64,000 bases of DNA from Candidatus Pacebacteria bacterium RIFOXYA1_FULL_38_18 (lineage in GTDB: Bacteria > Patescibacteriota > Microgenomatia > UBA1400 > PJMF01). Numbering within the stretch: the first letter of the stretch is position 1; every line of letters begins with the position of its first letter. Positions 15,368 through 63,392 of the stretch are shown piece after piece. Below the pieces are notes generated by a model. It made no database searches, was not told where the DNA came from, and worked only from the letters and a program-made list of their open reading frames with translations. Where the stretch lies: the NCBI GenBank assembly GCA_001787405.1, contig MFWV01000011.1:48857-112856 (forward strand). The letters are read 5' to 3'. Made by a program: the position numbers and the translations under genes.

Positions 15368-15372
15368 GTTTT

Positions 15373-39523: not shown

Positions 39524-39527
39524 CAAT

Positions 39528-40544: not shown

Positions 40545-40680
40545 AGTGTTAATAATTCTTCGCTTTATTTCAAAACCATTTTTATATAAGTGAAGAATCT
40601 TTCTCCAGTATATAGAACTTTTTAGGTAAAGGTCAACTAAGAACGCTTGGGAATTTTTTTATTTTAATTGATGAGTAATT

Positions 40681-42757: not shown

Positions 42758-42760
42758 AGA

Positions 42761-43702: not shown

Positions 43703-43703
43703 T

Positions 43704-45168: not shown

Positions 45169-45185
45169 TGTGCATTGCTGATTTG

Positions 45186-48362: not shown

Positions 48363-49112
48363 TCAATGACGAACCAGAACATTTTTTTTATAAGCTTCTA
48401 TAGCCCTTATTCCATCATTTTGAATAAGTTTTCCTTTTTCCAGCCAAATGATTCTCGTGCAATGATCTTTTAGATAATCCAACCAATGACTGACGCTAAT
48501 AATTGTTTTACCTTGTTTGTAAAATTGATTGATTTTTTGCAAAGATTTTTTTCTAAACTCTTCATCTCCCACAGCTATTGCCTCGTCCAAAAGTAAAATA
48601 TCTGGATCAGAGTGAACAGCAATAGAAAATCCTAGTCTCAAGGACATTCCAGAAGAATAGGTGTAAAGGGGAGAGTCAATAAATTTTTTTAGGCCGCTAA
48701 ACTGAATAATTTTTTTATATTTTTTTTCTATTTCTGGTCTCGTCATGCCAACAATAAGTCCATTGAGAAAAATGTTTTCTTCTCCAGTGAGTTCAGGATG
48801 AAAACCCGCTTCAAGTTCTATTAATGAAACAATTCTTCCTTTAGTGATAATTTTTCCAGTTGTGGGAGCGGTTATGCCAGCGATCATTTTGAGAACAGTT
48901 GTTTTTCCAGATCCATTGGGCCCAATGATTCCCACTTTTTCTCCACTATATATTTCGAAAGAAACATCTTTTAGAGCCTCAAATTTTTCTCTAGATTCCA
49001 GTCCCAAAAATGATCCTACCAGAGTTGGTTTTTGGTGTTTAAGAACGTATTTTTTACAGACTTTTTCAAAATAGATAACTGTTTGTTTTTTGCGTTTCAT
49101 TTTTACATCCAA
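48363..49112 (-). CDS. ABC transporter ATP-binding protein, polysaccharide/teichoic-acid exporter type (Wzt/TagH-like)
   Basis: Walker A GPNGSGKTT. Signature YSSGMSLRLGFSIAV. Walker B ILLLDEAIAVGD. Confidence 0.85.
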   Translation of the reverse strand: MDVKMKRKKQTVIYFEKVCKKYVLKHQKPTLVGSFLGLESREKFEALKDVSFEIYSGEKVGIIGPNGSGKTTVLKMIAGITAPTTGKIITKGRIVSLIELEAGFHPELTGEENIFLNGLIVGMTRPEIEKKYKKIIQFSGLKKFIDSPLYTYSSGMSLRLGFSIAVHSDPDILLLDEAIAVGDEEFRKKSLQKINQFYKQGKTIISVSHWLDYLKDHCTRIIWLEKGKLIQNDGIRAIEAYKKNVLVRH

Positions 49113-49858
49113 TCATCAAAATATTTTTGTTCTTTTTTAAATACCAGAATTCCCAGAATGGTAATTATGATCGTAGAGAAAATTGGCAACCAAAGAGCGT
49201 CTGGAGAAAGAAGATAATCTTGAATACCAAAAGAAACTCTAAACAGCTGAATGATAGCAGTGAGTGGATTTAAAAATAAGATTAGTTTAATTTTCTCTGG
49301 AATTAACTGAATTGAGTAAATGATTGGAGTGGCATAAAACCAAATAGGAATTATGGCTCTGACAAGAAAACTCATGTCTCTAAACTTCACATTAAGACTA
49401 GCAAAGAATAAAGAAATGCCGATTGTAAAAATAAAAATCCAAAAAATTGCCAGAATGAGTGTGAAAAAATTGATCATGGTTAAAGAAAATGGAAAAACCA
49501 AAATAAAGCCCACTATAAGATGAAAGAGATTTGATAGAACCAAAGAAAGAATCAGTGATTCTCTAGGAAAAACTGCTTTTTTGATCAAATGTCTTTCATC
49601 GACAAACAAAGAAACAGCTTTGGAAAAACTGATTGAGAAAAAATTCCAGGGCAAAAGTCCTAGAAAAAGATATAAAAAGTAATTTTCAGTTCTAATTCCT
49701 GGGAAAAATTGCAATACAAACCCAATAACCAACATTTGCAATAAAGGGTTGATTATCAGCCACAAAAACCCCAGTACCACATGTTTATATCTACCCTTGA
49801 GCTCTCTGGTAGTTAGCGCAAGCGTAAAATCCAGCCATCTTTTCCATTTTTTTATCAC
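49103..49858 (-). CDS. ABC-2 type transport permease (Wzm/TagG-like)
   Basis: 251 aa, 6 TM. Overlaps the cognate ATPase gene. Confidence 0.75.
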   Translation of the reverse strand: MIKKWKRWLDFTLALTTRELKGRYKHVVLGFLWLIINPLLQMLVIGFVLQFFPGIRTENYFLYLFLGLLPWNFFSISFSKAVSLFVDERHLIKKAVFPRESLILSLVLSNLFHLIVGFILVFPFSLTMINFFTLILAIFWIFIFTIGISLFFASLNVKFRDMSFLVRAIIPIWFYATPIIYSIQLIPEKIKLILFLNPLTAIIQLFRVSFGIQDYLLSPDALWLPIFSTIIITILGILVFKKEQKYFDDWM

Positions 49859-49871
49859 CCAATTTCCTTTT

Positions 49872-51002
49872 TTAAAAATTTTTTACAGCATCAGAGATAG
49901 CAATTATCTTATTCTTCCAACTGTTTGCAAGGGAAAGTTTTTTTTGTTTAGTTTTTTTGTTTTTAGCATGTTTCTCATTCAACAGAGAGCTTATATGTTC
50001 TTGCCATTCTTGGGAAGAGTGGCCTATTTTAATCAAATCTATAAATTTCTTCAGTTCAATTATGGGTGTAGCAATTACTGGTTTACCTAAATAAAAATAC
50101 TCAAAAATCTTCATGGGATAGGAGTATTGATTGGATTTTAAGGCAATATTGTAGGGAATCATACAGACATCAAATTGCTTGATGATATTTGGTAACTCGC
50201 GACGATTAGTGCTTTGGCCAAAGAACACGTTTGGTAGTGTTTTAAGCTTTCGGTTAGTCTCGAAATCGTCGGTAGCTTCAAGATCTTGCCTTGGTCCCCA
50301 AAAAACAAATAACCATTGGGGATTCTGTTTGATCAATCGATGTAGGAGTGCAAAATCTAGGCGGTAGTCAACCGAACCAACATAGCCAATGATAGGTTTG
50401 TTTTTGGGAAATTTTACTTTTGTTTTTAGAGGTCGTTGAAAATCATTGAGTCTGAACCCCTGGGGAACAATGGCGGTGGGTTGTCTAGTTTTTGAGTGAA
50501 GTTTGGCCAATACTTGAGAGTTAACGAAGAAGAAATCAGAGTTTTTGATCAATTTTTTTTCTTGAATTCGCAGTAATTTTCTCAATTTTATCTCGCAATG
50601 CCAGACATAATCCACGCAGTCATATAGAGAGATCAGTTTGGGATAGAAAATCTTTATTTTGGGGTAAAACCAAAAGAGGGAATCGAAAATCCATAAGACA
50701 GTGTGCTGTTTTCCACGACCATAGCGAATTAACAAATACCAAAGATTTAGCAATTGATTGAGTTTTTCTATCCATGCAAATCGGCGAAAAGGAATGAGAT
50801 AACGAGGTTGGTAGGCTAACAGATTGGCTTTTGATGGAAAGGTATTTAGTGGTCGTGGTTTAAGAAAAAACCTGGCATCAGCATTGATGTAAGCCACTAC
50901 TAGGTTGTTTTTAGCCAGCTCCAAGCAAGTTTGCATTTGATAATCAGCAGACCAATTCCAAGGTAATTGAAAGGGAATGATGATTAAACTTTTTTTAAAC
51001 AT
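49872..51002 (-). CDS. glycosyltransferase family 1 (GT4-like)
   Basis: IGYVGSVDYRLDF, FDVCMIPY and GKPVIATP are GT-B C-domain motifs. Start at internal Met; the ORF track gives 51032. Confidence 0.7.
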   Translation of the reverse strand: MFKKSLIIIPFQLPWNWSADYQMQTCLELAKNNLVVAYINADARFFLKPRPLNTFPSKANLLAYQPRYLIPFRRFAWIEKLNQLLNLWYLLIRYGRGKQHTVLWIFDSLFWFYPKIKIFYPKLISLYDCVDYVWHCEIKLRKLLRIQEKKLIKNSDFFFVNSQVLAKLHSKTRQPTAIVPQGFRLNDFQRPLKTKVKFPKNKPIIGYVGSVDYRLDFALLHRLIKQNPQWLFVFWGPRQDLEATDDFETNRKLKTLPNVFFGQSTNRRELPNIIKQFDVCMIPYNIALKSNQYSYPMKIFEYFYLGKPVIATPIIELKKFIDLIKIGHSSQEWQEHISSLLNEKHAKNKKTKQKKLSLANSWKNKIIAISDAVKNF

Positions 51003-52581
51003 GATTTGTTGTCTTTTGGTCAAATAAAGCAAGGCCTACATATAGAAAAAAATATGAAGAGAGTTCTGGATGATTGAGAAAGATGGGATAAAACATGGCA
51101 CACAGTAAATAAATGCCGGCAGCCAAGTTATATTCTTTGATAATGCCAGTTTTTAATCCCAAAAAAAATGGTTTGACGGTCAAAAAGCCAAATAATAAAA
51201 AGAGCGTTAGACCAACAATTCCGGTTTCGGCTAATAATTGAAAAAATAAATTATGCGGATAAGTAGGATCAAAGGCAAGTTGCTCTCCTTTAAATTCAGT
51301 TGCTAAATAATAAGGAGAAAGATTGATTCCCACTCCGAACAACGGATTATCCAACGAAAGGCGAGTGGCGTAGTACATCATGCGCAAGCGATAGGTAGCA
51401 CTACCATATTGAGTAAATACGTCTGATAAGGTTTCTATTCGGCGAGCTAAATAAGGGGCTAGGGCAATAGTAATGATTATTAAAATCGCAGCGAAAACAC
51501 CCATTACTTTTGACGGAATCCTTATTTTATTTTTTTTATTCGATTGCTGCCAGCGCTTCCAACTCCAAAAAGCTCCCACCAACCAGATGCCATACAAAAT
51601 TCGACTACCAGTAAAAACCAAGGCTAGACTACCCAAACCAATTGATAAAAGAGTAATTATTTTTGAAGCATTAATAATTCTTTTTTTACTCAAAAGAGCG
51701 GGAAGCAAAATAGCCATTTGCATCAATAAAAAAGTACCTAGAATGCTGGGTTCAAAAAAAGTACCGGCAAGTCTTAATAAACCTCTGTTTTCCGAAGATA
51801 AAATACCAAGTTGGGCTCCGGGTAAGTAAACCTCAATGTCTTTTCCCAGCGGTCCACCAGCCAAGCGTTGAACAAGCACCCAGCCAGCTTCAAACAATAA
51901 CACGGCCACAACAACGCTAAAAATAATTTTTCTCAATTGAGTTTTCTGTTTGGCAAATAATAGAAAAGGTAAAGCTATCAGCATCATCATTCTGACTAGT
52001 TGCAAGGAGGACAATAGACCAATCTCAGGAACAATGCTGAAAGTGCCACTCAAAATAGTCCAAACAATGAACAAAAAAAACAACCAAAGCGATTTGTTTT
52101 TTTGAAATGATAACTGAATTTGCTTGGCAGTCTGTTTGCCACGCAAGTACAAATAACCCAATAAACCCAAGAAAATATCTGCAATATAGATTGGAAAAAA
52201 ATAACTAATATCAAACCACGCCCAACGTTCTATATCTTCTTTGGGAAGCAACATTATTTGATAGGCTCGGCCTTTTGGAAATAAAAGAGTGGCAATCAAT
52301 CCAGCAAAAAGTGATAATTTCAAATTTTTGGTGATGCGATAAATTATTAACCAATAAAGGAAAGTAAATAAAATGAGAGTGCGATTGCTTGTGCTAAAAT
52401 ACAGGCTAACATAATAAAGGAGTGTAACAAAAAAAAGCCTGAGCGAAGGAGCTGAAACCATTACAATGGTTCGCCCAATAAAGCTTTTTGATATGGTACG
52501 CAATAGTTTCATGAAGTTCATTATACCTAAACGTTTTTTGGGAAAATTTAATATCTTTGACCTGGTTATAGCGGTTGCCAT
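50995..52581 (-). CDS. polytopic membrane protein, O-antigen ligase/polymerase (Wzy_C)-like
   Basis: 528 aa, more than 10 TM, with a periplasmic loop in the C-terminal third. The true start is probably an internal Met (about 52461) because of divergent overlap with 52466..53329. Confidence 0.4.
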   Translation of the reverse strand: MATAITRSKILNFPKKRLGIMNFMKLLRTISKSFIGRTIVMVSAPSLRLFFVTLLYYVSLYFSTSNRTLILFTFLYWLIIYRITKNLKLSLFAGLIATLLFPKGRAYQIMLLPKEDIERWAWFDISYFFPIYIADIFLGLLGYLYLRGKQTAKQIQLSFQKNKSLWLFFLFIVWTILSGTFSIVPEIGLLSSLQLVRMMMLIALPFLLFAKQKTQLRKIIFSVVVAVLLFEAGWVLVQRLAGGPLGKDIEVYLPGAQLGILSSENRGLLRLAGTFFEPSILGTFLLMQMAILLPALLSKKRIINASKIITLLSIGLGSLALVFTGSRILYGIWLVGAFWSWKRWQQSNKKNKIRIPSKVMGVFAAILIIITIALAPYLARRIETLSDVFTQYGSATYRLRMMYYATRLSLDNPLFGVGINLSPYYLATEFKGEQLAFDPTYPHNLFFQLLAETGIVGLTLFLLFGFLTVKPFFLGLKTGIIKEYNLAAGIYLLCAMFYPIFLNHPELSSYFFLYVGLALFDQKTTNHV

Positions 52582-53329
52582 TTTATTAATTTTTGGTTCG
52601 TTTTTATGGCTGAGAGTTTCCAGAAAAACTGAATGGATTTCATTGCGAATGGTTGTCTCAAATGATGAATGGTGGTACGAGGGGGCAGCTCCTCAATGGT
52701 GGTACACGGATGGATTGACTGCTGGCCAAACAGCCAAGAATACTTTTGGAGAAGTAATGGCAGAAATTACCAATGTACAAAGTTTTGATATTGGCAGTTA
52801 TCGCAGGAGAGTTTTTATTGATCTAAAAGTTAAGGGATATTTTGATACCAAACGAGGAATTTATATTTACAATTATCAGCCATTACAAATCGGCAAACCA
52901 CTTGACCTAACATTTGGTAAAAATAATTTACGAGGAGTTGTCACTTATATCGAAAATGCCCCAGAAGATTTTATAGAAAAGACTATTGAAGTATATATTC
53001 CGGCAGTACATTTATGGGTGGCACAGTCATATGAAAAAGGCATGCAAGTCAAGGATTTGCAAGGTAGAATTTTGGCTGAAATTGCTTCTGTAACAATTAC
53101 TCCCACCACTGCTCTAGAAATAACTGAGATTTTTCCTGGTGTTGCAGAAAAGAAGTTTGGCCCCGAGCAATTTTATGATTTAAAACTAGTGGTTAAGATT
53201 AAAACTTTTGAAAGTGGAGGAGTTAATTATTTTGTTGATCGATCAGCCATCAAAATAGGTGAATACATCTGTTTTCAATTTCCACAAACAACTGTTCGTC
53301 AGGCAGAAATTATTGGGATTATAGAGTAA
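52466..53329 (+). CDS. hypothetical N-terminally anchored protein
   Basis: 287 aa. TM FNIFDLVIAVAILLIFGSFLWL. Start uncertain. Confidence 0.45.
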   Translation: MVRPIKLFDMVRNSFMKFIIPKRFLGKFNIFDLVIAVAILLIFGSFLWLRVSRKTEWISLRMVVSNDEWWYEGAAPQWWYTDGLTAGQTAKNTFGEVMAEITNVQSFDIGSYRRRVFIDLKVKGYFDTKRGIYIYNYQPLQIGKPLDLTFGKNNLRGVVTYIENAPEDFIEKTIEVYIPAVHLWVAQSYEKGMQVKDLQGRILAEIASVTITPTTALEITEIFPGVAEKKFGPEQFYDLKLVVKIKTFESGGVNYFVDRSAIKIGEYICFQFPQTTVRQAEIIGIIE

Positions 53330-53350: not shown

Positions 53351-54019
53351 ATGTTTAAAAAATTGCGTGTTTTAGCATATTACTCCTTTTTGCCTTGGTC
53401 AAAGCGTATTTTTATCTCTTTCCGCTTACTCAGTTGTCCTTTTTTAGAATTGATAGATTACATACCTCAAAAAGGATCCTTACTTGATGTTGGCACTGGT
53501 TTTGGTTTATTGCCATTATTATTAACAAAGACAAAACATAAACAACAAATTATGGGTATTGATCCAGACATCAATCGTATTAAATGTGCTAAAAAAGCTA
53601 GTCAGGCTTTTCCCAATCTTCAATTCAAGTCAGGCATTATTCACCAGCTGAAAATCAATAAAAAGTTCTCAAGCATTACTATTATTGATGTTTTATATTT
53701 ATTACCGAAATTACAAAAACAAAAAATGATTCAATCAACTCGAAATTTGTTAAAATCCAACGGGCAACTTTTGCTAAAAATTAATGACCGATCTTTTAGT
53801 TTGAGTTTTTTTCTAACTTGGTTGCAGGAAAAAATTACTATTCATCTGCTTGGAGAAACAACTACTAGTTTTCCTGATGTATATTTTGAAAATGTAGTGG
53901 AAGTTAAAAAAATGCTCAGAAATAATGGTTTTAAAGTCAAAAAAACAGTTAGATTGCGCACTCCCTTTCCATTTTTTCATCAACATTGGTTGGTGATTGG
54001 TGAAAAGAAACATCAATGA
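53351..54019 (+). CDS. class I SAM-dependent methyltransferase
   Basis: Motif I LLDVGTGFGLLPLLL. Rossmann-like. Confidence 0.75.
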   Translation: MFKKLRVLAYYSFLPWSKRIFISFRLLSCPFLELIDYIPQKGSLLDVGTGFGLLPLLLTKTKHKQQIMGIDPDINRIKCAKKASQAFPNLQFKSGIIHQLKINKKFSSITIIDVLYLLPKLQKQKMIQSTRNLLKSNGQLLLKINDRSFSLSFFLTWLQEKITIHLLGETTTSFPDVYFENVVEVKKMLRNNGFKVKKTVRLRTPFPFFHQHWLVIGEKKHQ

Positions 54020-54024: not shown

Positions 54025-55605
54025 CTAATTAAGTTTTGATTCGGCATGCATAACCATGATCGGCTTAATTGGAGAATCGATAACTTCTTTCAAGATAAAT
54101 TTTTCTTGATAATATTTTTCATTAATATATTTTTCAAAACTATTTAAACAATCAATTTTAGTAAAACTATCCTGCACATCATGACAAATGATATATAGAA
54201 CTTTTGGTGAAGTATTTGATTTACGCTTGGCTTTACTAGTTTCCATATCGATGTCTACTAAATATTGATGGGTTATTTTTTCTAAAACATACCAATAAAA
54301 AGAAGTCTCCCAACCATAAGGGTCATAATTACTAATTGCCAGAAGATCTATGTCGGTTAATTGCAATTTTTTTTGTTTCGTATTTTCCAAAATAGCTGTA
54401 ATAGTAATATTGGTTTTTTCTATGTGGTTAAAACTACTGTTATTTTGGACTAGTTTTAAATCATAAAAAATTAAAAAGAATATCAAAAAAACTATGATTG
54501 GTATAAATAGTTTTTTGTTTAATCTACTCAATAAAGCTCCTAACCAAAGAAGTAAAAAAGGAATAGCGATAAATAAGTAAGCTCTTTCATCCATAAGATG
54601 AGGATTTTTAAAAACGATAGCCAAAAAAAGTATGGGACTAAACCATAATAAAAATATACCCACGATTTTTTTCTGTATTAGTTTCTGATTTATCATTGAA
54701 TAAATTTCTGAAATTATTCCGCCCAATATGATGAAAAACAAAATTGTTTGACTAAAAAAAGTGGGGAAAATATATTTGAGCATTTTTTTAAAACTAACAA
54801 CAAGTCTTGTTCCAAAAGAATCTTCCGTGATAGTGAAATCTGGATTTTGCAGATAATTATTTAAGGTTTGAAAATTAATCCAATCATATTTCAATTCAAT
54901 TTGAAGTAGGGGTAAATAAATTAAGATAGCACCCATTAGAGTTAGTGCCATTGTTTGTTTTTTCTTTTTAATTTTTTTGAAACCAAAACAGTACAAACCG
55001 ATTTTGATTGGTAGCAAAAGATACATGGGTGGATAAAATTGAGTGGCTAGCAAGCTAACTAGGGAAGAGGCAATGAAAAATTTGTCTTTTCTTTTTTTTA
55101 TAAATTTAGCTGCCAAAAACAGAGCAATACTTTCAAAAAAGACCGCTATTACTGGTTGAGATGTCCATATCGAAGCATGAATCATACTATGAGAGAACAG
55201 TGCTAAAACGAGAGCTGTCATACCAGCCTGTTTTCCCCAAAGAGATTTGGCTGCTTGATAGAGTAAGTAAGCTTGAATTAGATTGAGAAAAACAAAAATT
55301 AGGACATATCCCTCAGCAGTTTTAAAGCCAAGCAAATAAACTAAGCTAATAAAATAATAACCCAGAGGAGAATTGTGCATTAAATATTGATTTTTTGTGT
55401 CCAAAGCACTAATTTCTCCTACTGTTGGTAGAACCTTGTATTTGATGAAGTGCTCTGCAGTCAGTAGTTGTACTCCCTCATCTCCTGCAAGAGTATTTAG
55501 GTGATTCCAATTAAATACTCTCATCACTCCAGCGATCAAAAAAAGAATGATAATTGGTAATTTATTTTTAACAAACTGAGTAGTTTTTTTTTGACTATTT
55601 TTCAT
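54025..55605 (-). CDS. GT-C fold glycosyltransferase, ArnT/PMT_2-like (GT83/GT39-type)
   Basis: 526 aa, about 11 TM. First extracytoplasmic loop carries LAGDEGVQLL (the DE motif of GT-C enzymes). Confidence 0.6.
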   Translation of the reverse strand: MKNSQKKTTQFVKNKLPIIILFLIAGVMRVFNWNHLNTLAGDEGVQLLTAEHFIKYKVLPTVGEISALDTKNQYLMHNSPLGYYFISLVYLLGFKTAEGYVLIFVFLNLIQAYLLYQAAKSLWGKQAGMTALVLALFSHSMIHASIWTSQPVIAVFFESIALFLAAKFIKKRKDKFFIASSLVSLLATQFYPPMYLLLPIKIGLYCFGFKKIKKKKQTMALTLMGAILIYLPLLQIELKYDWINFQTLNNYLQNPDFTITEDSFGTRLVVSFKKMLKYIFPTFFSQTILFFIILGGIISEIYSMINQKLIQKKIVGIFLLWFSPILFLAIVFKNPHLMDERAYLFIAIPFLLLWLGALLSRLNKKLFIPIIVFLIFFLIFYDLKLVQNNSSFNHIEKTNITITAILENTKQKKLQLTDIDLLAISNYDPYGWETSFYWYVLEKITHQYLVDIDMETSKAKRKSNTSPKVLYIICHDVQDSFTKIDCLNSFEKYINEKYYQEKFILKEVIDSPIKPIMVMHAESKLN

Positions 55606-56707
55606 TGACCAGTAAATCTATTACCAATAAACAATCTTCAGAATTGCCAGCATAACAATCATAACGATATTGATATTGAATTATGCCGATCAAAATAATG
55701 ATAGCCCAAAAAAGAATTGGTTTTTTGATTAATTTTTGTAGCAAGACTAGAAACAATAGGTAAAAAACAGGCAAAACTGGGAAAATATATCTGGGTAAAA
55801 AATAACCAAGTTTAGTTATCATGAGTAGGCTGGGCAGAGAAGTAATACCCAAAATTAAACCAGGGATAGATATCTTTTTGATTTGTTGGATAAGTTTTTT
55901 ACTAGTAAGCAACATAACAAAAATAGATTCAGAAATAATATATCTTCCCTGACGAACAGTGATATAAACAATGGCGTCCCACAAACTTTGCCAGGGTTGT
56001 TCATCAAAATATCTCTCAGGTGAATAGATCCACCAACCAGTTATTTGCAAATGAATGACCAACCAGAGGACTGTAGTTAATAAAAAGGGGAAGACATAGC
56101 GAATGATCCAGTTTAATTTATTGGTTATTTCTTTTTCCAAAAAAAGATAGGCAATTGCTGATGCACTCAAGAAAAGACTGTTATCAATTCTGGTTAAAAT
56201 AGCAATCAAGCCAATGATGGTAAAACGTAAATATTTTTTTTCTAGTAAGAAAATTACAGCTAGAAAGCGCAAAGCTGTGCCAATGATTTCAAAATAAACC
56301 AAATGTGTTTGTGCTAAAAAAAGAGGGTTAGTTAAAAATAGTAAAACCAAAGCCATGCCTACTTTTTTATTAACCAATTTGTTACCCAATAAGTACATAA
56401 CAATAAGGAAAAAAATTGAGAGCAATAACCCTAGTATATGAATGAGTAGCAAATGATTGCCTGGCATTTGCAAAATTAAAGCAATAGCCAGAGGTAATAA
56501 AAAGGTGTGAGGATAATCACTAAATCCCAGATAAGAAAATAAGTTGCTTGTTTCAGCAATTGATCCAGCTGCAGCTATCAAAAACCATTCGGTATCCCAG
56601 TAGAAAGGGAGCAAAAATCCTTGTTTTAGGATCCAAAAAAGAAGAAAAACAACAAAAATAAAAAATAAAACTAAATATTGATTTTTTTTGATTAAAATTT
56701 TAATCAT
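55595..56707 (-). CDS. hypothetical polytopic membrane protein
   Basis: 370 aa, 9-10 TM. Confidence 0.45.
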   Translation of the reverse strand: MIKILIKKNQYLVLFFIFVVFLLFWILKQGFLLPFYWDTEWFLIAAAGSIAETSNLFSYLGFSDYPHTFLLPLAIALILQMPGNHLLLIHILGLLLSIFFLIVMYLLGNKLVNKKVGMALVLLFLTNPLFLAQTHLVYFEIIGTALRFLAVIFLLEKKYLRFTIIGLIAILTRIDNSLFLSASAIAYLFLEKEITNKLNWIIRYVFPFLLTTVLWLVIHLQITGWWIYSPERYFDEQPWQSLWDAIVYITVRQGRYIISESIFVMLLTSKKLIQQIKKISIPGLILGITSLPSLLMITKLGYFLPRYIFPVLPVFYLLFLVLLQKLIKKPILFWAIIILIGIIQYQYRYDCYAGNSEDCLLVIDLLVNEK

Positions 56708-58079
56708 ATAAATTGCCTGGGTGAGTAATGTTTGTCTCGATCAATGGACTCGAAATTCTGTTTTTTGTCAATGTAAGTGAAAAATATCTGGCAAAAAACA
56801 AAGCTTGTAAAACACAAAACATTAAATATTTATGAGGTCTAAATATCAAGTAAGAAATAGTAGAGGCAGTGCTTCTAATCGATAATTTATATTGATTGGT
56901 CATTTTTACAACTAGCTGATTGAGTAAATTAAAAGTATGAATGTGCTGTTCTGAATCAACGTAAGTCGGTGAAAGAGTCAATGATTCAAGTCGCTTAAAC
57001 TGATTATTTAACTCTAGATCAATTTCATTTAATCGAATTTGCCCAAATAAAAGTTTTATCAGAAAAATAAAAAGAGAGAAAAAATTTCCTTGATGATTTA
57101 CTAATGATGGAATTAAATAAGATTTTGTTATTGGTTTACCTCTAGTTAAATTAAAATGAAGACCAATTTTAATTTGTTTTTTGAAATGAAGTAATTTTTG
57201 AGCTTCTGATTTAGAAATTAAGTTGGCCAATACGGAAACGCCGTCCAAGTTTTTGGCTTCGATTTGATTTAATATCGCTTGATCAACAAGCGGAGATAAA
57301 CCGTAGTCATCAGCGATTATTAATTTATTTTTTTGATATATATTTTTTCGGTCAAAAGTATTTATCAAATAAAAACTCGCTAATCGATAAAGATCAATCA
57401 AAAGAGCTCTCATTCTTTTCCAAGAAGTGTAGCGACTGGGTCTGAGTTCAGTAACTTTAATAGGAATTTCCTTAATAGTTTGCTGTTGCTGGTGGAGTTT
57501 TAATAATAACTCAGTATCTAAAATTTCATGTTTAGTGGCACAGTTTCTTAGAGTATTAATCAAGATTGGAGTAAGGCGAAAAGCCTTCAATCCATGAGTG
57601 TCTGTACCTGGATAAGCAAATAAAATTTTCAATAATTGATGAAATAATTTGGTTTGTGCGCGTCGCAATAAATTTCTTTGATCATAATTTTTAATTAGGG
57701 TTTTTGAACCAATTATTATTTTGTGTTTTTTAAGTAATTTCTGGGTTTGAGAAATAAAATCATGATCAAATAAATCGACATTGAGAATATAAACAAATTG
57801 ACCTAAAGAGCTTAAGATTCCATGTTTGAGTGCTTGTCCATAAGAAGCCTTGTTGACACGCAAGGCTCGTAAGCTCGAATATTTTTTAGTTAATTGTTTA
57901 ATAATTGACCAAGATTGATCACTACTACCATTTTCTACCAGTAGAACCTCGAATTTAGTAATGCGCTCTTTATTTAATAATTGATAAAAAAGTTTTATCT
58001 GTGAAGAAAGATGAAGAGCCTCATTGTGAACTGGGAAGATAAAACTGTGTTTTTTAGGGTGAATGATTTTTTTTGTCAT
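56700..58079 (-). CDS. fusion: GT2 polyprenol-phosphate-sugar-synthase-like N-domain plus YdjC/ChbG-like carbohydrate deacetylase C-domain
   Basis: N-domain FIFPVHNEALHL, LLVENGSSDQS. C-domain KLIIADDYGLSPLVDQAIL, IKIGLHFNLTRGKP (YdjC-family). Confidence 0.6.
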   Translation of the reverse strand: MTKKIIHPKKHSFIFPVHNEALHLSSQIKLFYQLLNKERITKFEVLLVENGSSDQSWSIIKQLTKKYSSLRALRVNKASYGQALKHGILSSLGQFVYILNVDLFDHDFISQTQKLLKKHKIIIGSKTLIKNYDQRNLLRRAQTKLFHQLLKILFAYPGTDTHGLKAFRLTPILINTLRNCATKHEILDTELLLKLHQQQQTIKEIPIKVTELRPSRYTSWKRMRALLIDLYRLASFYLINTFDRKNIYQKNKLIIADDYGLSPLVDQAILNQIEAKNLDGVSVLANLISKSEAQKLLHFKKQIKIGLHFNLTRGKPITKSYLIPSLVNHQGNFFSLFIFLIKLLFGQIRLNEIDLELNNQFKRLESLTLSPTYVDSEQHIHTFNLLNQLVVKMTNQYKLSIRSTASTISYLIFRPHKYLMFCVLQALFFARYFSLTLTKNRISSPLIETNITHPGNLYD

Positions 58080-59290
58080 TAATAAATCTGATGGTTTTTT
58101 TTAAGAACACTATCATATTTTTTCATAAACTTATCATTTTGATCAGTATTGTGATTTTTCTTTATATACTGATTATTATCGTTTACCATTTTTTGAGCTT
58201 TTTGGGGAGAAGAAAGAATTCTTATAATTGCTTCAATGAATTGTTTTGTTGAATTTGCTTCTAAATAATGTTTATTTTTTATCAATTTTAAACCTTCTAC
58301 TCCAAGTGATGTAGAAACAATTGGTAGGCCGGCGGCCAAACTGGTAAGTGCTTTCAATCGCACTCCACCACCCATTTTGAAAGGCAAGACAAAAACATCT
58401 GCTTGGGCTAAAAATGGTGTTAAATCAGTTTGATAGCCATGCAAAATCACATTTTTTTTGATTGGTAAGGTTTTTTCAAAAGGAGGATATGATCGACCCA
58501 CAATATGAAACTCAACATTGGGAATTTGTTTTTCTATTGTTGGCAGTATTTTTTTGATAAACCACCTCACAGCATCTTCGTTTGGCGGCCAGCCGAGCAT
58601 GCCGATAAATAAAATATAAGGGTTTTTTGAGCGCCGTTTTTTAATTGGTTTTGCCTGGTAAATTAACGGCTGAGCCGCCACATGCTCCACTCCAAATATT
58701 TTTTGCAAGCGCTTTTTTTCAGGTTCAGAAATCGCAAAAATAAAATCAAATTTGGGCAACATTTTTCTTTCATAAAAATAAGTCAGCACCATCTCAATCA
58801 ACAAATATAATTTACGCGTTGGTTTGATGGTGTGTACAAACCTAGTCCAATAAAGATAGGTTTCCACATTATGATGTTCCAGAATCCATTTTTCTTTTTT
58901 TATTTTCGGCAAGTATTGCGCAGTATTGAGATGATCAATATGAATAATGTCTGGTTGGAATTGTTGGATGGTTTTTTTGATAAACCTACCGGCCGGTAAA
59001 TGAGTATATTGAAAAACATAATGAGGAATACCTTGTATAAAATTTTTGAAAAGCCCCCACAGATCACCTTTAACCGAAGCCAAAATTGTAGAACTATAAA
59101 AAATCTTTACCCGGATGCCCGCATCGGTTAAAACCTTTACATCACTTGGCTTTGGTTTTTCTTCAGAAATAAAAACCGCAAACACCTGATATTGCTTAGC
59201 CAGAGCAAGTACGGTATTAAGAGTCTTAATCTTGCCACCAGAATCTGGTGGATAAGGAAAAAGTTGACTAAGATAAAGAATTTTTTTCAT
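58079..59290 (-). CDS. glycosyltransferase family 1 (GT4-like)
   Basis: ILFIGMLGWPPNEDAV and LPFKMGGGVRLKALTSLAAGLPIVST match the GT-B fold. Confidence 0.75.
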   Translation of the reverse strand: MKKILYLSQLFPYPPDSGGKIKTLNTVLALAKQYQVFAVFISEEKPKPSDVKVLTDAGIRVKIFYSSTILASVKGDLWGLFKNFIQGIPHYVFQYTHLPAGRFIKKTIQQFQPDIIHIDHLNTAQYLPKIKKEKWILEHHNVETYLYWTRFVHTIKPTRKLYLLIEMVLTYFYERKMLPKFDFIFAISEPEKKRLQKIFGVEHVAAQPLIYQAKPIKKRRSKNPYILFIGMLGWPPNEDAVRWFIKKILPTIEKQIPNVEFHIVGRSYPPFEKTLPIKKNVILHGYQTDLTPFLAQADVFVLPFKMGGGVRLKALTSLAAGLPIVSTSLGVEGLKLIKNKHYLEANSTKQFIEAIIRILSSPQKAQKMVNDNNQYIKKNHNTDQNDKFMKKYDSVLKKNHQIY

Positions 59291-60765
59291 TGTTCAATAT
59301 AAAATTTTTCTATAGTATATTTTTCATCCTCATTATTTTCGTTGATTGTAACTTGATAAAGTGTATTAAAATTTTCAGGTTCAACAACAGTTGGTTGAGA
59401 ATTGCTTATTACCACCAATTCTTTTTGTAGTTTTTCTTCCAAAAAAAGCCAAAGAGCAGAATTGAAGGTACTATCACTATCAGTTAATTCATAAACTTCA
59501 TTAATTAAATTTATAGAAAAGTGCTTGCTGTTATTATTTTTACTTACATCCAAGCTAATTTTTTGAGAAATGTCTTCTAATAAAGCGATTTCTTTTCCAG
59601 GCCAATAAATTAATTTAATTTTAACACTCTGTAAATATAAAAATACCAATAATAATCCCAGAATAATTCCAATATTTTTAAATTCTTTTCCTGATTTACA
59701 GATATAAAAAATTGCCAATGGTATTTGTAGATGAAAAAGTATTAAAAAAGGAAAAAAATATCCTCCATAAAATATATAAAGGAAGCCACTTATTGAAAGA
59801 ATAATTAGAGTCGATGTGTATTTATTAAAACTTTGATAAGAAGCAGATTCTTTGAAAAATGAAAGATAAAAAAACAAGAATATTAGAATCAACGAACCTA
59901 TTAGTAATGATTGATAAATATCACTTAGCCAAAAATCATTGATATTGAATAATGCTTGAGTAGCAATATTAATATTGCTTACTATTTGCTGAGCATTGGT
60001 TGTAATTAATGAAGCTTGACTATAATTTTTGATTAAATAATTTAAGTTAAAACTAAATGATAATCTGAAACTAAAACTGATGACCATAATTGTAAAAATT
60101 ATTAGTCTTTTTTGTTTAGTCTTAAAAGACTTTATCAAAACCCAAATAAACATCAGAATTACTAAAATGAAAGTGGAGTAGTGAAGATGAATTAGTATAT
60201 TACTAACAACGAAAAAAATAGCCAGTTTTAGCGAAGCTTTATTGAGGCTTTTTACAGAGATTAAATTAAAAAAAACAAAAACCAATAAAGGTATAAATAA
60301 TATTAACAAATGCATTTGCCAAACCCATCTAGAAGCTTCAACAAAGATTGGATTAATAGCAGTATAGAATGCCAAATAATAACCAGCAGTTTTATTTTCA
60401 ATTTTTTTCCCCAAAGCATAAGCAACCAAGACAACAAGAGATTGAATAATGGCAAAAAGGATTATCATTCCTTCAATAGATGGTGCTAGAAACCATAAAA
60501 AACCAATAATTAAAAAATAAAGCGGTGAGTTACTTAAAAAACTGTTTGTGGTAGCAGGACGAGCGGAGAAAGGCGCTGAGAAATTTGCCAAGTGTTTAGC
60601 AACTAGCAAATCTCTGCCTGTATCACCCATGATAGAAGTAGTATTTAAAATATTGTAAGTTCTCAAAAAAATCGCCAGAGCCAAAATGACCAATAAAGGA
60701 GTAGCTTTTTTCACCCAAAAAACCAAAGATTGCAAATTAAACGAGGGAGGACTGATTTTGAACAC
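59287..60765 (-). CDS. polytopic membrane protein, possible GT-C family glycosyltransferase
   Basis: 492 aa, about 12 TM. Early loop IMGDTGRDLLVAKH. Confidence 0.45.
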   Translation of the reverse strand: MFKISPPSFNLQSLVFWVKKATPLLVILALAIFLRTYNILNTTSIMGDTGRDLLVAKHLANFSAPFSARPATTNSFLSNSPLYFLIIGFLWFLAPSIEGMIILFAIIQSLVVLVAYALGKKIENKTAGYYLAFYTAINPIFVEASRWVWQMHLLILFIPLLVFVFFNLISVKSLNKASLKLAIFFVVSNILIHLHYSTFILVILMFIWVLIKSFKTKQKRLIIFTIMVISFSFRLSFSFNLNYLIKNYSQASLITTNAQQIVSNINIATQALFNINDFWLSDIYQSLLIGSLILIFLFFYLSFFKESASYQSFNKYTSTLIILSISGFLYIFYGGYFFPFLILFHLQIPLAIFYICKSGKEFKNIGIILGLLLVFLYLQSVKIKLIYWPGKEIALLEDISQKISLDVSKNNNSKHFSINLINEVYELTDSDSTFNSALWLFLEEKLQKELVVISNSQPTVVEPENFNTLYQVTINENNEDEKYTIEKFYIEQ

Positions 60766-60973: not shown

Positions 60974-61423
60974 TTACTTTTTGTAAGTAATTTTTAATGC
61001 CAGATCAGTTTCAAAATCAGGTATTAACAAATTATTATTTCCCGCTATTACGCTTCCGCTCTCTACTTCCAGACCAGTTTGAGGATCCAACCAAATAAAC
61101 GTACCATCAAAATTGGCTAAATAAACAGAATCGTCAATTATTGTTGCTGGAAAAGGACTGTAATTTTGAGCAGTAAACTCCCAGACTAAATTACCAGTAT
61201 TTTGTTTTAGAGCATAAGTGTTGTTGTTTTGACTGCTAAAAATTATTAAATCATCGTCAAAACTCAAGTTGTCAAAAATCTCAAGCTTGTTATTTGGTCC
61301 GATACTTTCATCACTATAAAATTGCCAATTTACGGCTCTACTATTAATCAATAAAAACAGACAGATAGACAAACTGAAGATGATTATTGGTTTTAAAGTT
61401 TTTTGATTGAGTTTAATTTGCAT
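60974..61423 (-). CDS. small secreted protein with PQQ-like beta-propeller repeats
   Basis: Signal peptide. YALKQNTGNLVWEF and FIWLDPQTGLE repeats. Confidence 0.5.
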   Translation of the reverse strand: MQIKLNQKTLKPIIIFSLSICLFLLINSRAVNWQFYSDESIGPNNKLEIFDNLSFDDDLIIFSSQNNNTYALKQNTGNLVWEFTAQNYSPFPATIIDDSVYLANFDGTFIWLDPQTGLEVESGSVIAGNNNLLIPDFETDLALKITYKK

Positions 61424-62198
61424 TGAAAGTCTTTTTTATTTTTTTGAAAAGATTAACGGAAAATTGTTTGCTAATTAAAAAGATAAATAAAAAATTGAAA
61501 ACCAGATAACGCCGGCCCAATCTTCTTGGTTCCTGCAATAATCTAAAAAACCATTCCAGGCCAGCTGACCTCATCCAATGCGGGGCTTGTTTCACTCGAC
61601 CGGTTAAAAAATTAAAAGCCGCTCCCACACCAATTGCGATACCGGTTTTCAAGTTTGGTAAATTGTCGATCATCCATAGTTCTTGTTGTGGGCAACCTAA
61701 CCCTATAAAAATTAATTGTGGTTTAGCAATATTAATTTGTTTAATAATTTGTTGATTTTTTTGTTTGGGCAATGGGCGCACGGGAGTATCAACATGACCA
61801 ACCACCCTGATACCAGGAAATTTTTTTTGCAAAACATTTTTGAGTTTTTTACTTTGCCCCCTTATTCCGCCTAATAAAAAAATTGTTGCTCCAATTTGAC
61901 TAGCTCGTGCACAGATTTTAAGCATCAAATCTGGTCCATAGACTCGTTCAACGTGTTTTTGTCCATCGGCTTTCAGCAACCACACTAGGGGCATCCCATC
62001 CGGAGTGACCAATCCAGCTCGATTTAGTCCAGCCAACAATCGAGGGTCTTTTTGACACTCCATGATTGAATGAACCGCGGCCACACAAACATAATTTTTG
62101 CGTCGGTTTTTAACCCAATCGAAAATTATATTAAGTGCCAGCGGATAGTTAAGTTGTGAGACTTTGACTCCTAAAATATCGGTATTTTTGTTCATCAT
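61413..62198 (-). CDS. WecB/TagA/CpsF family glycosyltransferase (GT26)
   Basis: 261 aa. ILGVKVSQLNYPLALNII...VTPDGMPLVWL matches the family. Confidence 0.8.
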   Translation of the reverse strand: MMNKNTDILGVKVSQLNYPLALNIIFDWVKNRRKNYVCVAAVHSIMECQKDPRLLAGLNRAGLVTPDGMPLVWLLKADGQKHVERVYGPDLMLKICARASQIGATIFLLGGIRGQSKKLKNVLQKKFPGIRVVGHVDTPVRPLPKQKNQQIIKQINIAKPQLIFIGLGCPQQELWMIDNLPNLKTGIAIGVGAAFNFLTGRVKQAPHWMRSAGLEWFFRLLQEPRRLGRRYLVFNFLFIFLISKQFSVNLFKKIKKTFNAN

Positions 62199-62204: not shown

Positions 62205-63392
62205 CTATTCCAGTGATGATTTTTTTGCAAACTGAGCTTGAATAATCTGTAGCAATTGTTGTTGAAATTTTTGCTCACTAAATTTCGCAGCTTGTCTTCG
62301 GCAATTTTGGGCAGACCAAGTATTTTTCTCGAATTCTTTAATAGCTCTTTCCAGAGATTTTATCGAAAACCTATCAAACAACAAGCCTGTTTTTTTGTGA
62401 ACCACTGTTTCCTTGACTCCTCCAGAGGCAAACGCAATCACCGGCACTCCACAGCTCATGGCTTCCACTGGTACTAAACCAAAATCTTCTTCGATGGCAG
62501 TATAAATCAATGCTCGAGCTTGACCATAAAGTTTAATCAGTTGTTGATCGGTGACAAAACCGACAAAACTAATATTCGGACCTGCGATCTTTTGCAGATA
62601 TTTTTTCTCTGCTCCCGTACCAATCACTATCAGTGGCTTGTTAAGTCGATTAAAAGTTTTAATGACTAATTCAGCACCCTTTTGTTTGACTAGTCGGGAA
62701 TGAAATAAATAGTATTGGGGTTGAGCTGCCGATCGTTTTGACAGTTCAGTTGTTTTGGGTAAAATAGCCGGCGGATAAATCACTAGACTTTTTCTGTCAT
62801 AATATTTGGCAATGCGTTTTTGAGTAGTTTGGGAATTGGCAATTAATTGATCGACTCGTTGAGCGGCTTGCCAATCTTTTTTTCTTAAATAAGTGAGCCA
62901 GCCAGAAAATATTTTTTGAAAAAAAGGTTTTTTAACCCAATTCATTTCGTTGAATTCACGATACAGATAGCGGGGGGGAGTATGAAGATAAGCAAGGTGC
63001 AGAGTGGAGAATTTAGTTTTAACCGATTTGGCAGAAAATGAATGTGACGAAGAAATCACCAGATCGTATTGATCGAGTTTGAGCCGTTCCCAATAAGCTA
63101 TCACCAATGGTTTTAAAAAACTAATATATTTTTCTGGCAGTGGTATCTTGTTTAATAAGGAAGTGTGGATGGTGTGTGTCCGACTCAATTTTTTCCAATA
63201 AGGTTTTTTAATGAGGGCAATATAGACCTCAGCTTGAGGAAATAATTTTAAGATGTTTTCTAAAACTCGTTCGGCACCACCGAGGTAAAGGTAGCAATCA
63301 TGCACCACTGCAATCTTGAGTTTATCGAAATCAATGACTGGCAGTTGTTTATTGGGCAACTGGGTCTGTATTGTATTTTTATCTTGCCTCAT
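62205..63392 (-). CDS. glycosyltransferase family 1 (GT4-like)
   Basis: GGAERVLENILKLFP and EEDFGLVPVEAMSCGVPVIA. Confidence 0.8.
   Translation of the reverse strand: MRQDKNTIQTQLPNKQLPVIDFDKLKIAVVHDCYLYLGGAERVLENILKLFPQAEVYIALIKKPYWKKLSRTHTIHTSLLNKIPLPEKYISFLKPLVIAYWERLKLDQYDLVISSSHSFSAKSVKTKFSTLHLAYLHTPPRYLYREFNEMNWVKKPFFQKIFSGWLTYLRKKDWQAAQRVDQLIANSQTTQKRIAKYYDRKSLVIYPPAILPKTTELSKRSAAQPQYYLFHSRLVKQKGAELVIKTFNRLNKPLIVIGTGAEKKYLQKIAGPNISFVGFVTDQQLIKLYGQARALIYTAIEEDFGLVPVEAMSCGVPVIAFASGGVKETVVHKKTGLLFDRFSIKSLERAIKEFEKNTWSAQNCRRQAAKFSEQKFQQQLLQIIQAQFAKKSSLE

Follow-up and report, generated by a model that had tools for sequence, protein, structure and literature searches.

Among described systems, those closest in logic to the locus analyzed here modify lipid A or a wall polysaccharide. 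The YdjC-family enzyme NaxD deacetylates Und-P-GalNAc, after which a GT-C moves GalN to lipid A (PMC11279074), and the GlcN modification of lipid A in Bordetella requires lgmA, lgmB and lgmC (PMC4993483). In mycobacteria, GalN is placed on arabinogalactan by PpgS (Rv3631) together with Rv3779 (PMC3485146). In S. mutans, GalNAc is the sugar put on Ser/Thr-rich disordered regions (PMC12041528).

The window, the whole stretch of 64,000 nucleotides that was analyzed, comes from a Microgenomates (CPR/Patescibacteria) bacterium. It harbors a two-gene core that appears to ensure the synthesis of a polyprenyl-phosphate amino sugar and its attachment at the cell surface. This decoration module is embedded in a conserved ~15-kb surface-glycan locus (GT26, GT4s, DUF4330, Wzy_C and Wzm/Wzt) and would be a fused, rearranged form of the pathway by which lipid A and the mycobacterial wall are known to be modified. 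Its features, with the basis of each assignment, are:

38816..41589, minus strand: three Pro/Thr-rich surface proteins, candidate acceptors (translations, composition scan)
48363-49112, minus strand: Wzt ATPase (Pfam)
49103-49858, minus strand: Wzm ABC-2 permease (Pfam)
49872-51032, minus strand: GT4 (Pfam)
50995..52581, minus strand: Wzy_C membrane protein (O-antigen ligase / polymerase / PglL-type), 528 aa (Pfam Wzy_C, E = 5e-18)
52466..53329, plus strand: DUF4330-like single-pass membrane protein, conserved locus member (Pfam DUF4330)
53351..54019, plus strand: soluble class I SAM-dependent methyltransferase, 222 aa, convergent with the GT-C (Pfam Methyltransf_23/31/25)
54025..55605, minus strand: GT-C (class A) membrane glycosyltransferase, 526 aa (PMT_2 match, loop-1 motif, TM helices, fold)
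55595..56707, minus strand: short GT-C-like multi-TM protein, 370 aa (hhalign)
56703..57332, minus strand: YdjC/ChbG-family de-N-acetylase domain, aa ~250-459 of the 459-aa fusion (Pfam, NCBIfam, residue alignment)
57345..58079, minus strand: GT2 domain, aa 1-~245 of the same fusion, probable polyprenyl-phosphate glycosyltransferase type (ArnC/GtrB/DPMS) (Pfam, profile search, Foldseek)
58079..59290, minus strand: GT4 glycosyltransferase (stp1-like), translationally coupled to both neighbors by start/stop overlaps (Pfam Glyco_trans_1_4; TIGR03087, E = 5e-45)
59287..60765, minus strand: second full-length GT-C paralogue, 492 aa, loop-1 motif G47-D48-T-G-R-D52 (broad GT-C family profile)
61413..62198, minus strand: GT26 WecG/TagA-family glycosyltransferase (Pfam Glyco_tran_WecG, E = 5e-59; TIGR00696)
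62205..63392, minus strand: GT4 glycosyltransferase heading the minus-strand gene string (Pfam Glycos_transf_1, E = 4e-34)

The two core ORFs, 54025..55605 (526 aa) and 56700..58079 (459 aa), both on the minus strand, lie exactly where the preliminary description placed them and are called identically on the source metagenome contig; their length and the existence of homologues at E < 1e-100 exclude chance. Start and stop codons overlap along a run of five genes that begins with 59287-60765 and ends with 54025-55605. The preliminary description had rightly placed a GT-C and a GT2 gene in this interval, and its ArnC/DPM1-like GT2 domain is borne out by Pfam, PDB profile and Foldseek comparisons. 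It had missed the deacetylase fused to the GT2, and mentioned neither the 370-aa gene between the two, nor the second GT-C (59287-60765), nor the methyltransferase (53351-54019).

The GT2 domain of the fusion is matched by Pfam with E = 4e-11. When PDB sequences are searched with a profile, ArnC alone spans the whole domain (E ~1e-13), and Foldseek with the GT2 model (pLDDT 89.7) returns ArnC, GtrB or DPMS for all of the top 10 and 24 of the top 25 matches. No TM helices are predicted in the domain by hydropathy, unlike in ArnC, GtrB and DPMS; its fold and context suggest a polyprenyl-phosphate glycosyltransferase with polyprenyl-P as acceptor. The C-terminal domain matches Pfam YdjC (E = 3e-33) and, in NCBIfam, chitin disaccharide deacetylase and HpnK. 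The motifs for catalysis and metal binding, ADD(257/258)YG, GLH308FNL, DSEQH379IH381 and H453PG, are intact: ADDYG, LHFNL, DSEQHxH and HPG align residue by residue to ChbG (7vi8) and EF_3048 (2i5i), and the motif residues are invariant among 28 fusion homologues. Judging from these residues, the domain looks active. Fusion of a GT2 to a HexNAc-type deacetylase points to an amino sugar and not to mannose; given the substrate range of YdjC enzymes, this sugar would be a hexosamine.

The 526-aa protein is, as first described, a multi-TM GT-C with a DE motif in its first outer loop: hydropathy gives about 10-11 hydrophobic helices in aa 12-386, and G41-D42-E43 directly follows TM1, D42 being invariant even in distant relatives. 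A C-terminal soluble alpha/beta domain of ~140 aa is predicted to be extracytoplasmic. The match to Pfam PMT_2 is just above threshold (29.4 bits for a cut-off of 26.1), and Pfam detects neither a MIR domain nor a PF02366 match. Its five best structural matches, ALG12, Pmt4, ArnT, Pmt2 and ALG9, all use polyprenyl-monophosphate-sugar donors, and such a donor fits the GT-C as well. Placement of the GT-C among the families, called for in the preliminary description, was approximated by this fold comparison: the protein lies about equally far (~10% identity) from protein-directed Pmt, lipid-directed ArnT and glycan-directed ALG12/ALG9, so that fold does not separate the three kinds of acceptor.

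Two further GT-C-type proteins accompany it, neither having a Pfam match. The 370-aa protein keeps the N-terminal catalytic module, with a loop-1 motif W-D-T-E-W, and has no C-terminal domain; hhalign aligns its family to the GT-C profile with a probability of 96% (E = 2.9e-9), WDTEW facing GDxGxD. Its orthologues adjoin the GT-C and the fusion in five loci (L005, L007, L012, L013 and L086), and it could serve as an accessory transferase or as a flippase. The 492-aa paralogue matches the broad GT-C family profile with E = 2.8e-55, and its positional counterpart in L086 matches PF02366/PF13231.

The GT2-YdjC fusion is known in about 58 proteins, whose named carriers are all CPR bacteria. All eight neighborhoods of 526-aa GT-C orthologues (L005, L007, L012, L013 and L086-L089) contain a YdjC-containing gene, in varying gene orders and orientations. 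Conversely, 15 of the 20 species loci that bear the fusion contain a member of the GT-C family no farther than 10 kb away, a figure to be read against the abundance of GT-C paralogues in CPR genomes; the same profile comparison gives occasional weak GT-C matches at GT2-only control loci. A homologue of the methyltransferase, whose best solved-structure matches are generic, accompanies the fusion at 10 kb or less in 10 of the 20 loci, directly adjacent in several and in differing orientations, as well as in three of four additional GT-C contexts. It is thus a frequent partner of the fusion gene, though about one fusion locus in two has none within this distance.

These data bear on the possibility that the fusion protein couples HexNAc in the cytoplasm directly to a lipid or to a polyprenyl-PP-linked glycan under assembly before deacetylating it, the GT-Cs using another donor. 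HpnI/HpnK on hopanoids, PgaC/PgaB and NodC/NodB are parallels for such chemistry. HpnK (TIGR03473) is the second-best NCBIfam match of the deacetylase domain (E = 1.5e-13), the GT2 is devoid of TM helices, and many GT2 folds act on non-polyprenyl acceptors, such enzymes appearing lower in the Foldseek list. We nevertheless hold this scheme to be very unlikely. In structure as well as in sequence over the full domain, the best matches of the GT2 are polyprenyl-phosphate glycosyltransferases without exception, the linkage of fusion and GT-C is tight across rearrangements, and single-chain GT2+GT-C fusions occur among the relatives of the GT-C (P0164, P0165, P0206 and P0252). Moreover, apart from the other GT2 genes (42761-44699 and 23583-24551), which stand outside this assessment, no second polyprenyl-P-sugar synthase was identified in the locus to supply the three GT-C-type proteins.

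The surroundings of the module confirm the surface-glycan genes announced in the preliminary description, with Wzm/Wzt, GT26 and Wzy_C present and GT4 enzymes found, and support its view of a polyprenyl-P-sugar synthase beside a GT-C inside such a locus. GT26 enzymes of the WecG/TagA type add the second sugar of a polyprenyl-PP-linked linkage unit. The block 48363..51032 (GT4, Wzm and Wzt), assigned to the export of a polyprenyl-PP-linked glycan, also occurs in L005, L086 and L087, and in L086 the gene order is that of the window across the entire locus. Among the eight GT-C neighborhoods, GT26 is present in seven, Wzy_C in seven and Wzm/Wzt in three. Wzy_C genes lie near the fusion in many related loci, and DUF4330 orthologues adjoin Wzy_C in L005, L012, L013 and L061. 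UppS and mevalonate-pathway genes, for carrier supply, are encoded within the window. At the locus, no GtrA- or ArnE/F-like flippase gene, nor another flippase candidate of known type, was found.

The Wzy_C protein could be a PglL/WsaB-type O-oligosaccharyltransferase, its best NCBIfam match being TIGR03097, [quoted passage not shown] (E = 1e-11). The ~15-kb locus might then be an S-layer/surface-protein glycan (slg-type) cluster, in which this protein attaches the polyprenyl-PP-linked glycan, once exported, to surface proteins, for instance the Pro/Thr-rich ones, and the module adds hexosamine to the protein-bound glycan. The ABC-transporter-dependent S-layer glycan clusters of Geobacillus comprise Wzm/Wzt, glycosyltransferases, a methyltransferase and the Wzy_C-domain protein WsaB, a gene make-up equal to that of the locus. 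Wzy_C genes adjoin the fusion in many loci, and a WaaL-type role is unlikely since CPR bacteria are not known to make lipid A. However, membership in Wzy_C does not separate polymerases, ligases and O-oligosaccharyltransferases, no target protein is conserved at the locus, and Pro/Thr-rich genes are seldom near the module (see below), which makes this arrangement quite unlikely.

The Pro/Thr-rich proteins themselves are present as described, at a distance of 12.4 kb from the GT-C/GT2 interval and not 15 kb. Their N-terminal anchors and, in one of them (40681-41589), a terminal LPETG followed by a hydrophobic tail, a sortase-type signal, indicate exposure outside the membrane. The GT-C(s) might therefore transfer the lipid-linked sugar directly to Ser/Thr of these sortase-anchored stalk proteins (38816-41589). 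The parallels cited for protein O-glycosylation are actinobacterial Ppm1/PMT and streptococcal GtrB/PgtC2 or PgfS/PgfM1. Streptococcal GT2+GT-C pairs do modify extracytoplasmic Ser/Thr-rich disordered regions (PMC12041528), and in the close relative L005 three Pro/Thr-rich orthologues stand directly beside the methyltransferase and the GT-C. Against this, a composition scan that recovers all three proteins of the window, and hence works, finds only two of 24 related loci, L005 and L009, to have Pro/Thr-rich ORFs at 10 kb or less from the fusion. Only the former has an orthologue of the 526-aa GT-C, module-adjacent orthologues of the proteins are confined to it, and in the window the adjacency is interrupted by 12 kb of other genes. 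The supposed link between module and Pro/Thr-rich proteins is thus not conserved, as compared with GT26 and Wzy_C in seven of eight GT-C neighborhoods each. The Pro/Thr-rich genes also differ in GC content from the glycan locus (0.40 versus 0.28-0.35), the 526-aa GT-C lacks MIR and PF02366, and the protein-directed GT-Cs of streptococci are members of another family, YfhO. Direct protein O-glycosylation is therefore weakly supported, and we regard it as unlikely.

A wall sugar polymer, rather than the nearby Pro/Thr-rich proteins, is the most likely acceptor. At the cytoplasmic face, the GT2 domain would move N-acetylhexosamine from UDP-HexNAc to yield polyprenyl-P-HexNAc, as sequence and fold suggest. 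The fused YdjC domain would strip the N-acetyl group, giving polyprenyl-P-hexosamine, in keeping with the joining of the two domains, with active-site motifs that are intact and with the precedent of NaxD/LgmC. More speculatively, this intermediate may be a substrate of the soluble methyltransferase, with the freed amine as a possible site. The lipid-linked sugar would then be flipped, the 370-aa protein being only a candidate flippase. Outside the membrane, the 526-aa GT-C, perhaps with its 370-aa and 492-aa paralogues, would transfer the cationic sugar, using the catalytic Asp of loop 1. We consider this donor-side chemistry together with GT-C transfer to be rather probable. Granted this pathway, the chances are about even that the acceptor is the glycan of the locus, which GT26 and GT4 would assemble, Wzm/Wzt export, and Wzy_C ligate or polymerize.

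The analogy with ArnC/ArnD/ArnT (L-Ara4N on lipid A), also put forward in the preliminary description, comes close to the mark. There too, the amino sugar starts out in masked form: a GT2 links it to undecaprenyl phosphate, its amine is freed by a hydrolase, and a GT-C hands it on. Over its full length the GT2 domain is best matched by ArnC, and the leading matches of the GT-C include ArnT. The identity is, however, only 10-20%, domain searches found no ArnA/ArnB or ArnE/F equivalents, and the unmasking enzyme is here of the YdjC type, acting on N-acetyl, whereas ArnD is a different type of hydrolase and removes an N-formyl group. GtrA/B/C-type systems decorate a surface polymer after its export, on the outer side of the membrane and with a GT2-made polyprenyl-P-sugar as donor, Glc or GlcNAc being transferred without deacetylation and with a small GtrA-type flippase. 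Among the structural matches of the GT2 domain, GtrB is a strong one, but no GtrA-type gene was seen at the locus. The streptococcal GT2+GT-C and PMT systems likewise combine a lipid-sugar synthase with a GT-C, and Pmt enzymes are good structural matches; yet they have no deacetylase, and the 526-aa GT-C neither belongs to the YfhO family, as the streptococcal enzymes do, nor carries the MIR domains of PMTs.

The nearest systems, Francisella FlmF2/NaxD/FlmK and Bordetella LgmA/LgmC/LgmB, provide lipid A with a hexosamine (PMC11279074, PMC4993483). Their individual proteins cover three activities, the same as those predicted for the module: a GT2 that makes polyprenyl-P-HexNAc, a de-N-acetylase of the YdjC family that works on the lipid-linked sugar, and an ArnT-like GT-C that moves the amino sugar to its acceptor outside the membrane. 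In the module, by contrast, a single polypeptide devoid of TM helices unites synthase and deacetylase. Two additional GT-C-type paralogues are encoded, a methyltransferase is often found nearby, and the whole is embedded in an ABC-transporter-type glycan locus. The acceptor must differ as well, as the CPR host is not known to make lipid A. In Mycobacterium tuberculosis, whose envelope is devoid of LPS, the GT2 PpgS (Rv3631) makes polyprenyl-P-GalNAc and the GT-C Rv3779 puts GalN (or GalNAc) on a wall polysaccharide (PMC3485146). Likened by described function and not by sequence, this pair would be the closest precedent for a wall-glycan acceptor, albeit with a different acceptor polymer. No gene is known for the corresponding deacetylation in mycobacteria, whereas here the deacetylase resides in the same polypeptide as the GT2. 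With its fused HexNAc-type deacetylase and a GT-C lacking MIR and PF02366, the module departs from the Ppm1/PMT O-mannosylation first invoked for it, and the best reading of its pathway logic is that of FlmF2/NaxD/FlmK, LgmA/C/B and PpgS/Rv3779.

The glycan locus encodes a 459-amino-acid protein in which a GT2 domain is fused to a YdjC-type deacetylase. The gene lies among those of several putative GT-C enzymes, with a methyltransferase gene at the border of this string (coordinates, strand, product):

59287-60765 (-), GT-C paralogue, 492 aa, without a Pfam match, recognised by a broad family profile (E = 2.8e-55)
56700-58079 (-), GT2-YdjC fusion, 459 aa, from Pfam, NCBIfam and Foldseek
55595-56707 (-), short GT-C-like protein, 370 aa, from hhalign
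54025-55605 (-), GT-C, 526 aa, from its transmembrane (TM) pattern, Pfam PMT_2 and fold
53351-54019 (+), class I methyltransferase, 222 aa, convergent with the 526-aa GT-C, from Pfam

Together with a GT4 gene (58079-59290, -), the four minus-strand genes of this list form a string of five, from 59287-60765 to 54025-55605, in which neighbouring genes overlap, start to stop. The scan of 53-64 kb for promoters and terminators performed no better than with shuffled sequence and thus gives no information on operon boundaries. The preliminary description had reported a GT-C and a GT2 gene, and both ORFs are found exactly at 54025-55605 and 56700-58079; it had missed the 370-aa GT-C-like gene inside this interval, the second GT-C and the methyltransferase.

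The GT2 domain of the 459-aa protein, already recognised in that description, is detected by Pfam at residues 12-155, but the fused C-terminal YdjC deacetylase (PF04794, residues 254-420, E = 3e-33) had been overlooked. NCBIfam labels this second half as chitin disaccharide deacetylase/HpnK. Its Asp/His active-site and metal-binding motifs, together with the model match, place it in the YdjC/ChbG/NaxD/HpnK de-N-acetylase family: ADD(257/258)YG, GLH308FNL and DSEQH379IH381 match ADDFG, MHFVL and DSHHHVH of ChbG residue by residue, and these motifs and a C-terminal HPG are invariant across 28 homologues. The predicted structure of the full-length protein has high confidence (pLDDT 89.7), and a long helix (219-242) connects the two domains. 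The top 10 Foldseek matches, and all but one of the top 25, are ArnC, GtrB or DPMS, while the second domain is covered by YdjC structures. When a GT2 profile was compared with PDB sequences, ArnC alone aligned through the entire domain (positions 5-233, E ~1e-13), the other GT2 enzymes aligning to its N-terminal half only. With its GT-A fold and a C-terminal, acceptor-side half that aligns to known members, the domain belongs to the polyprenyl-phosphate glycosyltransferases. The C-terminal TM anchor of the ArnC/GtrB/DPMS type is absent, and hydropathy analysis finds no TM segment between or after the domains of the fusion; human DPM1 likewise lacks TM helices. The fusion of a HexNAc-type deacetylase to this GT2 argues for an amino sugar, rather than mannose, as the probable donor sugar.

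The 526-aa GT-C comprises ~10-11 hydrophobic helices (residues 12-386) followed by a C-terminal soluble domain of ~140 residues. Its many TM helices, an acidic first-loop motif and fold similarity to solved GT-C enzymes assign it to class A of the GT-C superfamily. The DE motif that had been noticed in the first outer loop corresponds to G41-D42-E43, directly after TM1, of which D42 is invariant, distant relatives included; a K-rich N-terminus speaks for a start in the cytoplasm. Beyond the superfamily, the assignment is far less precise: the match to PF13231 (PMT_2) is barely over threshold (29.4 bits vs 26.1), and none of the NCBIfam models is matched. A profile of ten family members retrieved no PDB chain sequence even at E <= 10, so that a search by fold was required. 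Identity is ~10% for all of the best structural matches; as they include protein-, lipid- and glycan-directed enzymes, they leave the fold silent on the acceptor. The five best do share a polyprenyl-monophosphate sugar donor.

Two known families were considered and rejected for this protein. The analogy with Ppm1 and PMT that had been drawn initially is not supported: the Pfam search yields no match to PF02366 or to MIR domains, the modelled C-terminal domain is an alpha/beta domain without a MIR loop, and the GT2 partner carries a HexNAc-type deacetylase, all of which speak against PMT/GT39. Membership of ArnT/GT83 was dismissed since no curated model matches and identity to ArnT is ~10%.

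The kinship of the 492-aa and 370-aa proteins to the 526-aa GT-C is visible only by the broad family profile and hhalign, pairwise BLASTP between the 526-aa protein and these two returning nothing. The 492-aa paralogue bears the loop-1 motif G47-D48-T-G-R-D52. The 370-aa protein matches the part of the GT-C profile that covers the N-terminal catalytic module (probability 96%, E = 3e-9), its WDTEW standing over the GDxGxD of the profile.

Comparative data link these families. The search recovered about 58 full-length GT2-YdjC fusions, of which the named ones all come from bacteria of the Candidate Phyla Radiation (CPR). The nearest named relatives of the 459-aa protein belong to Candidatus Pacebacteria (56% identity), Chisholmbacteria and Woesebacteria, which places the organism in the Microgenomates group of the CPR; a metagenome contig of 202 kb from JGI encodes an identical protein, and the gene calls of this contig agree with the ORFs of the window. 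GTDB genomes and assemblies supplied 20 species loci with the fusion. Of these, 15 have a GT-C-family gene no more than 10 kb away from it and 10 a methyltransferase homologue within the same distance, several of the latter directly adjoining the fusion in differing orientations. Conversely, all eight neighbourhoods of 526-aa GT-C orthologues (L005, L007, L012, L013 and L086-L089, related loci of other genomes) contain a YdjC-containing gene, in several gene orders, and six of them a methyltransferase. The word-index homologue search yielded just 11 GT-C relatives and 9 methyltransferase relatives, the latter without informative fusions. In four GT-C-family proteins, a GT2 and the GT-C are joined in a single chain. 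The GT2 subfamily of the fusion is also found joined to a class I methyltransferase in place of YdjC (relative proteins P0061 and P0068, E = 1e-66 to 1e-71). Since phmmer detects no similarity between that domain and the methyltransferase of the window, these two proteins are only suggestive of a link to the latter. Taken together, the GT2-YdjC, GT2+GT-C and GT2+methyltransferase fusions tie these families functionally.

The surroundings are those of a surface-glycan locus of the ABC-transporter type, as had been proposed. From 63392 down to 48363, the gene order is GT4, GT26 (WecG/TagA), a beta-propeller remnant, GT-C, GT4, GT2-YdjC, the 370-aa protein, GT-C, methyltransferase, DUF4330, Wzy_C, GT4, Wzm and Wzt. 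The whole order is repeated in L086, while L005, L012, L013 and L087 hold most of these genes arranged otherwise; GT26 and Wzy_C are each present in all but one of the eight neighbourhoods of GT-C orthologues. The window also encodes a carrier-lipid supply, with UppS at 13240-13938 and three mevalonate-pathway genes at 32318-35183 (GHMP kinases and diphosphomevalonate decarboxylase). Within the 28-40% GC of the window, the glycan locus (42001-64000) has a GC content of 0.28-0.35, against 0.35-0.40 over 1-42000, a dip typical of exchangeable surface-polysaccharide loci.

Several further features of the window are worth recording. A 149-aa ORF (60974-61423, -) has weak PQQ_2/BamB-like matches. 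Its residues 33-120 are 55% identical to residues 31-118 of a ~1019-aa beta-propeller protein at the same position in L086, and its residues 107-147 match the last 41 of that protein, of which it looks like an internally deleted remnant. At the window's end, an ORF with at least six hydrophobic helices (63434-64000, +, continuing past the end) diverges from the glycan genes and may encode another membrane glycan enzyme. On the other side, the stretch 41645-46334, which separates the glycan locus from the Pro/Thr-rich genes, encodes an NTP_transf_5 nucleotidyltransferase, two GT2 proteins, an S24-like peptidase and a 395-aa P-loop protein; past Wzt, L086 has PqqD, QueC-like and Methyltransf_24 genes, and a peptide-modification (RiPP-like) island may adjoin the glycan locus. 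The window opens with dnaA and dnaN (319-3194), hence at the chromosomal replication origin region. A 779-aa protein (29794-32133, +) has coupling-protein domains of the HerA/TrwB/TraG type, a hint of an ATPase related to type IV secretion or conjugation.

Pro/Thr-rich stalks or a wall polymer had originally been suggested as the acceptor. The Pro/Thr-rich proteins are real: three are encoded at 38816-41589 (-), one of them terminating in LPETG and a hydrophobic tail, and in the close relative L005 three Pro/Thr-rich orthologues directly adjoin the methyltransferase. This arrangement would suit direct glycosylation of proteins by the module. The neighbourhood link, however, is not conserved: a composition scan, which recovers all three ORFs of the window, finds Pro/Thr-rich ORFs no further than 10 kb from the fusion in just two loci, L005 and L009, of the 24 related ones, and in the window 12 kb of other genes already break the adjacency seen in L005. 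The Pro/Thr-rich genes also have a GC content of 0.40, above that of the glycan locus. Direct protein glycosylation is thus retained as a minority possibility, as is attachment of the glycan to proteins by the Wzy_C protein; the likeliest acceptor is the glycan that the surrounding genes produce.

As to the Pro/Thr-rich proteins themselves, they have in common a conserved anchor at the N-terminus, which 'QDVRQQAYKAGE(E/D)PT' follows, and at the C-terminus a 'GP(E/A)DWL(K/N)YLQ(I/V)GL' hydrophobic tail. The canonical LPETG is found in one of the three only, and a relative (14983-17580 in the related locus L001) has LPQTG and LPVAG; judging from these sequences, the C-terminal signal may represent a variant sorting signal specific to CPR bacteria. 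A tRNA-Ile gene (anticodon TAT, 38649-38723, -) separates the first Pro/Thr-rich gene from HlyD-like, ABC and FtsX genes.

The most economical reading is a lipid-linked amino-sugar pathway in five steps. On the basis of homology, fusion and gene linkage, the GT2 domain would transfer a HexNAc to polyprenyl phosphate, the fused YdjC domain would remove the acetyl group, and one or more GT-Cs would finally move the amino sugar to an acceptor outside the membrane. Two intermediate steps are speculative: modification of the lipid-linked product by the methyltransferase, and flipping of the lipid-linked amino sugar across the membrane. No small GtrA- or ArnE/F-like flippase turned up in the locus.

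CPR bacteria (Patescibacteria) are tiny, mostly uncultured and live attached to host cells, so that their surface chemistry probably controls how they attach and how they withstand host defences. To our knowledge, there is next to no experimental work on their cell envelope. The locus offers a concrete, testable route to a positively charged amino sugar on this surface. Synthase and deacetylase reside in one soluble-looking 459-aa protein, of which expression and assay are expected to be easy. The functional links among the families could also aid annotation of thousands of unannotated PMT_2-like CPR proteins.

CPR bacteria are not known to carry LPS or to make lipid A. A literature search returned nothing relevant on a YdjC and GT-C system outside lipid A, or on CPR glycosylation, and no paper that describes the present system. 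A bolder combination of the above elements, which we consider improbable, would have the single fused Microgenomates enzyme produce a lipid-linked cationic hexosamine, the methyltransferase N-methylate the freed amine, by analogy with NodS following NodB, and up to three GT-C paralogues install the hexosamine outside the cell, as a charge-modifying decoration or a short hexosamine chain, attached either to the wall glycan or to the Pro/Thr-rich stalk proteins. If this were true, polyprenyl-P-(N-methyl)hexosamine would be a donor of which we know no description, and the whole a CPR-specific surface-charge system with a role like that of teichoic acid D-alanylation or lipid A aminoarabinosylation.

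Precedents for the five-step pathway come from other envelopes. NaxD de-N-acetylates Und-P-GalNAc (PMC11279074), the lgmA-C genes are needed for GlcN on Bordetella lipid A (PMC4993483), and PpgS and Rv3779 put GalN on arabinogalactan (PMC3485146). With the present locus, the logic of forming a lipid-linked HexNAc, deacetylating it and transferring it by a GT-C would reach beyond Gram-negative lipid A and mycobacterial arabinogalactan. As in the NaxD/LgmC-type pathway, a GT2 synthase, a YdjC deacetylase and a GT-C are encoded together here (54025-58079). In contrast to the lipid A pathways, the synthase and deacetylase are fused, additional GT-C paralogues are present, and a methyltransferase accompanies them.
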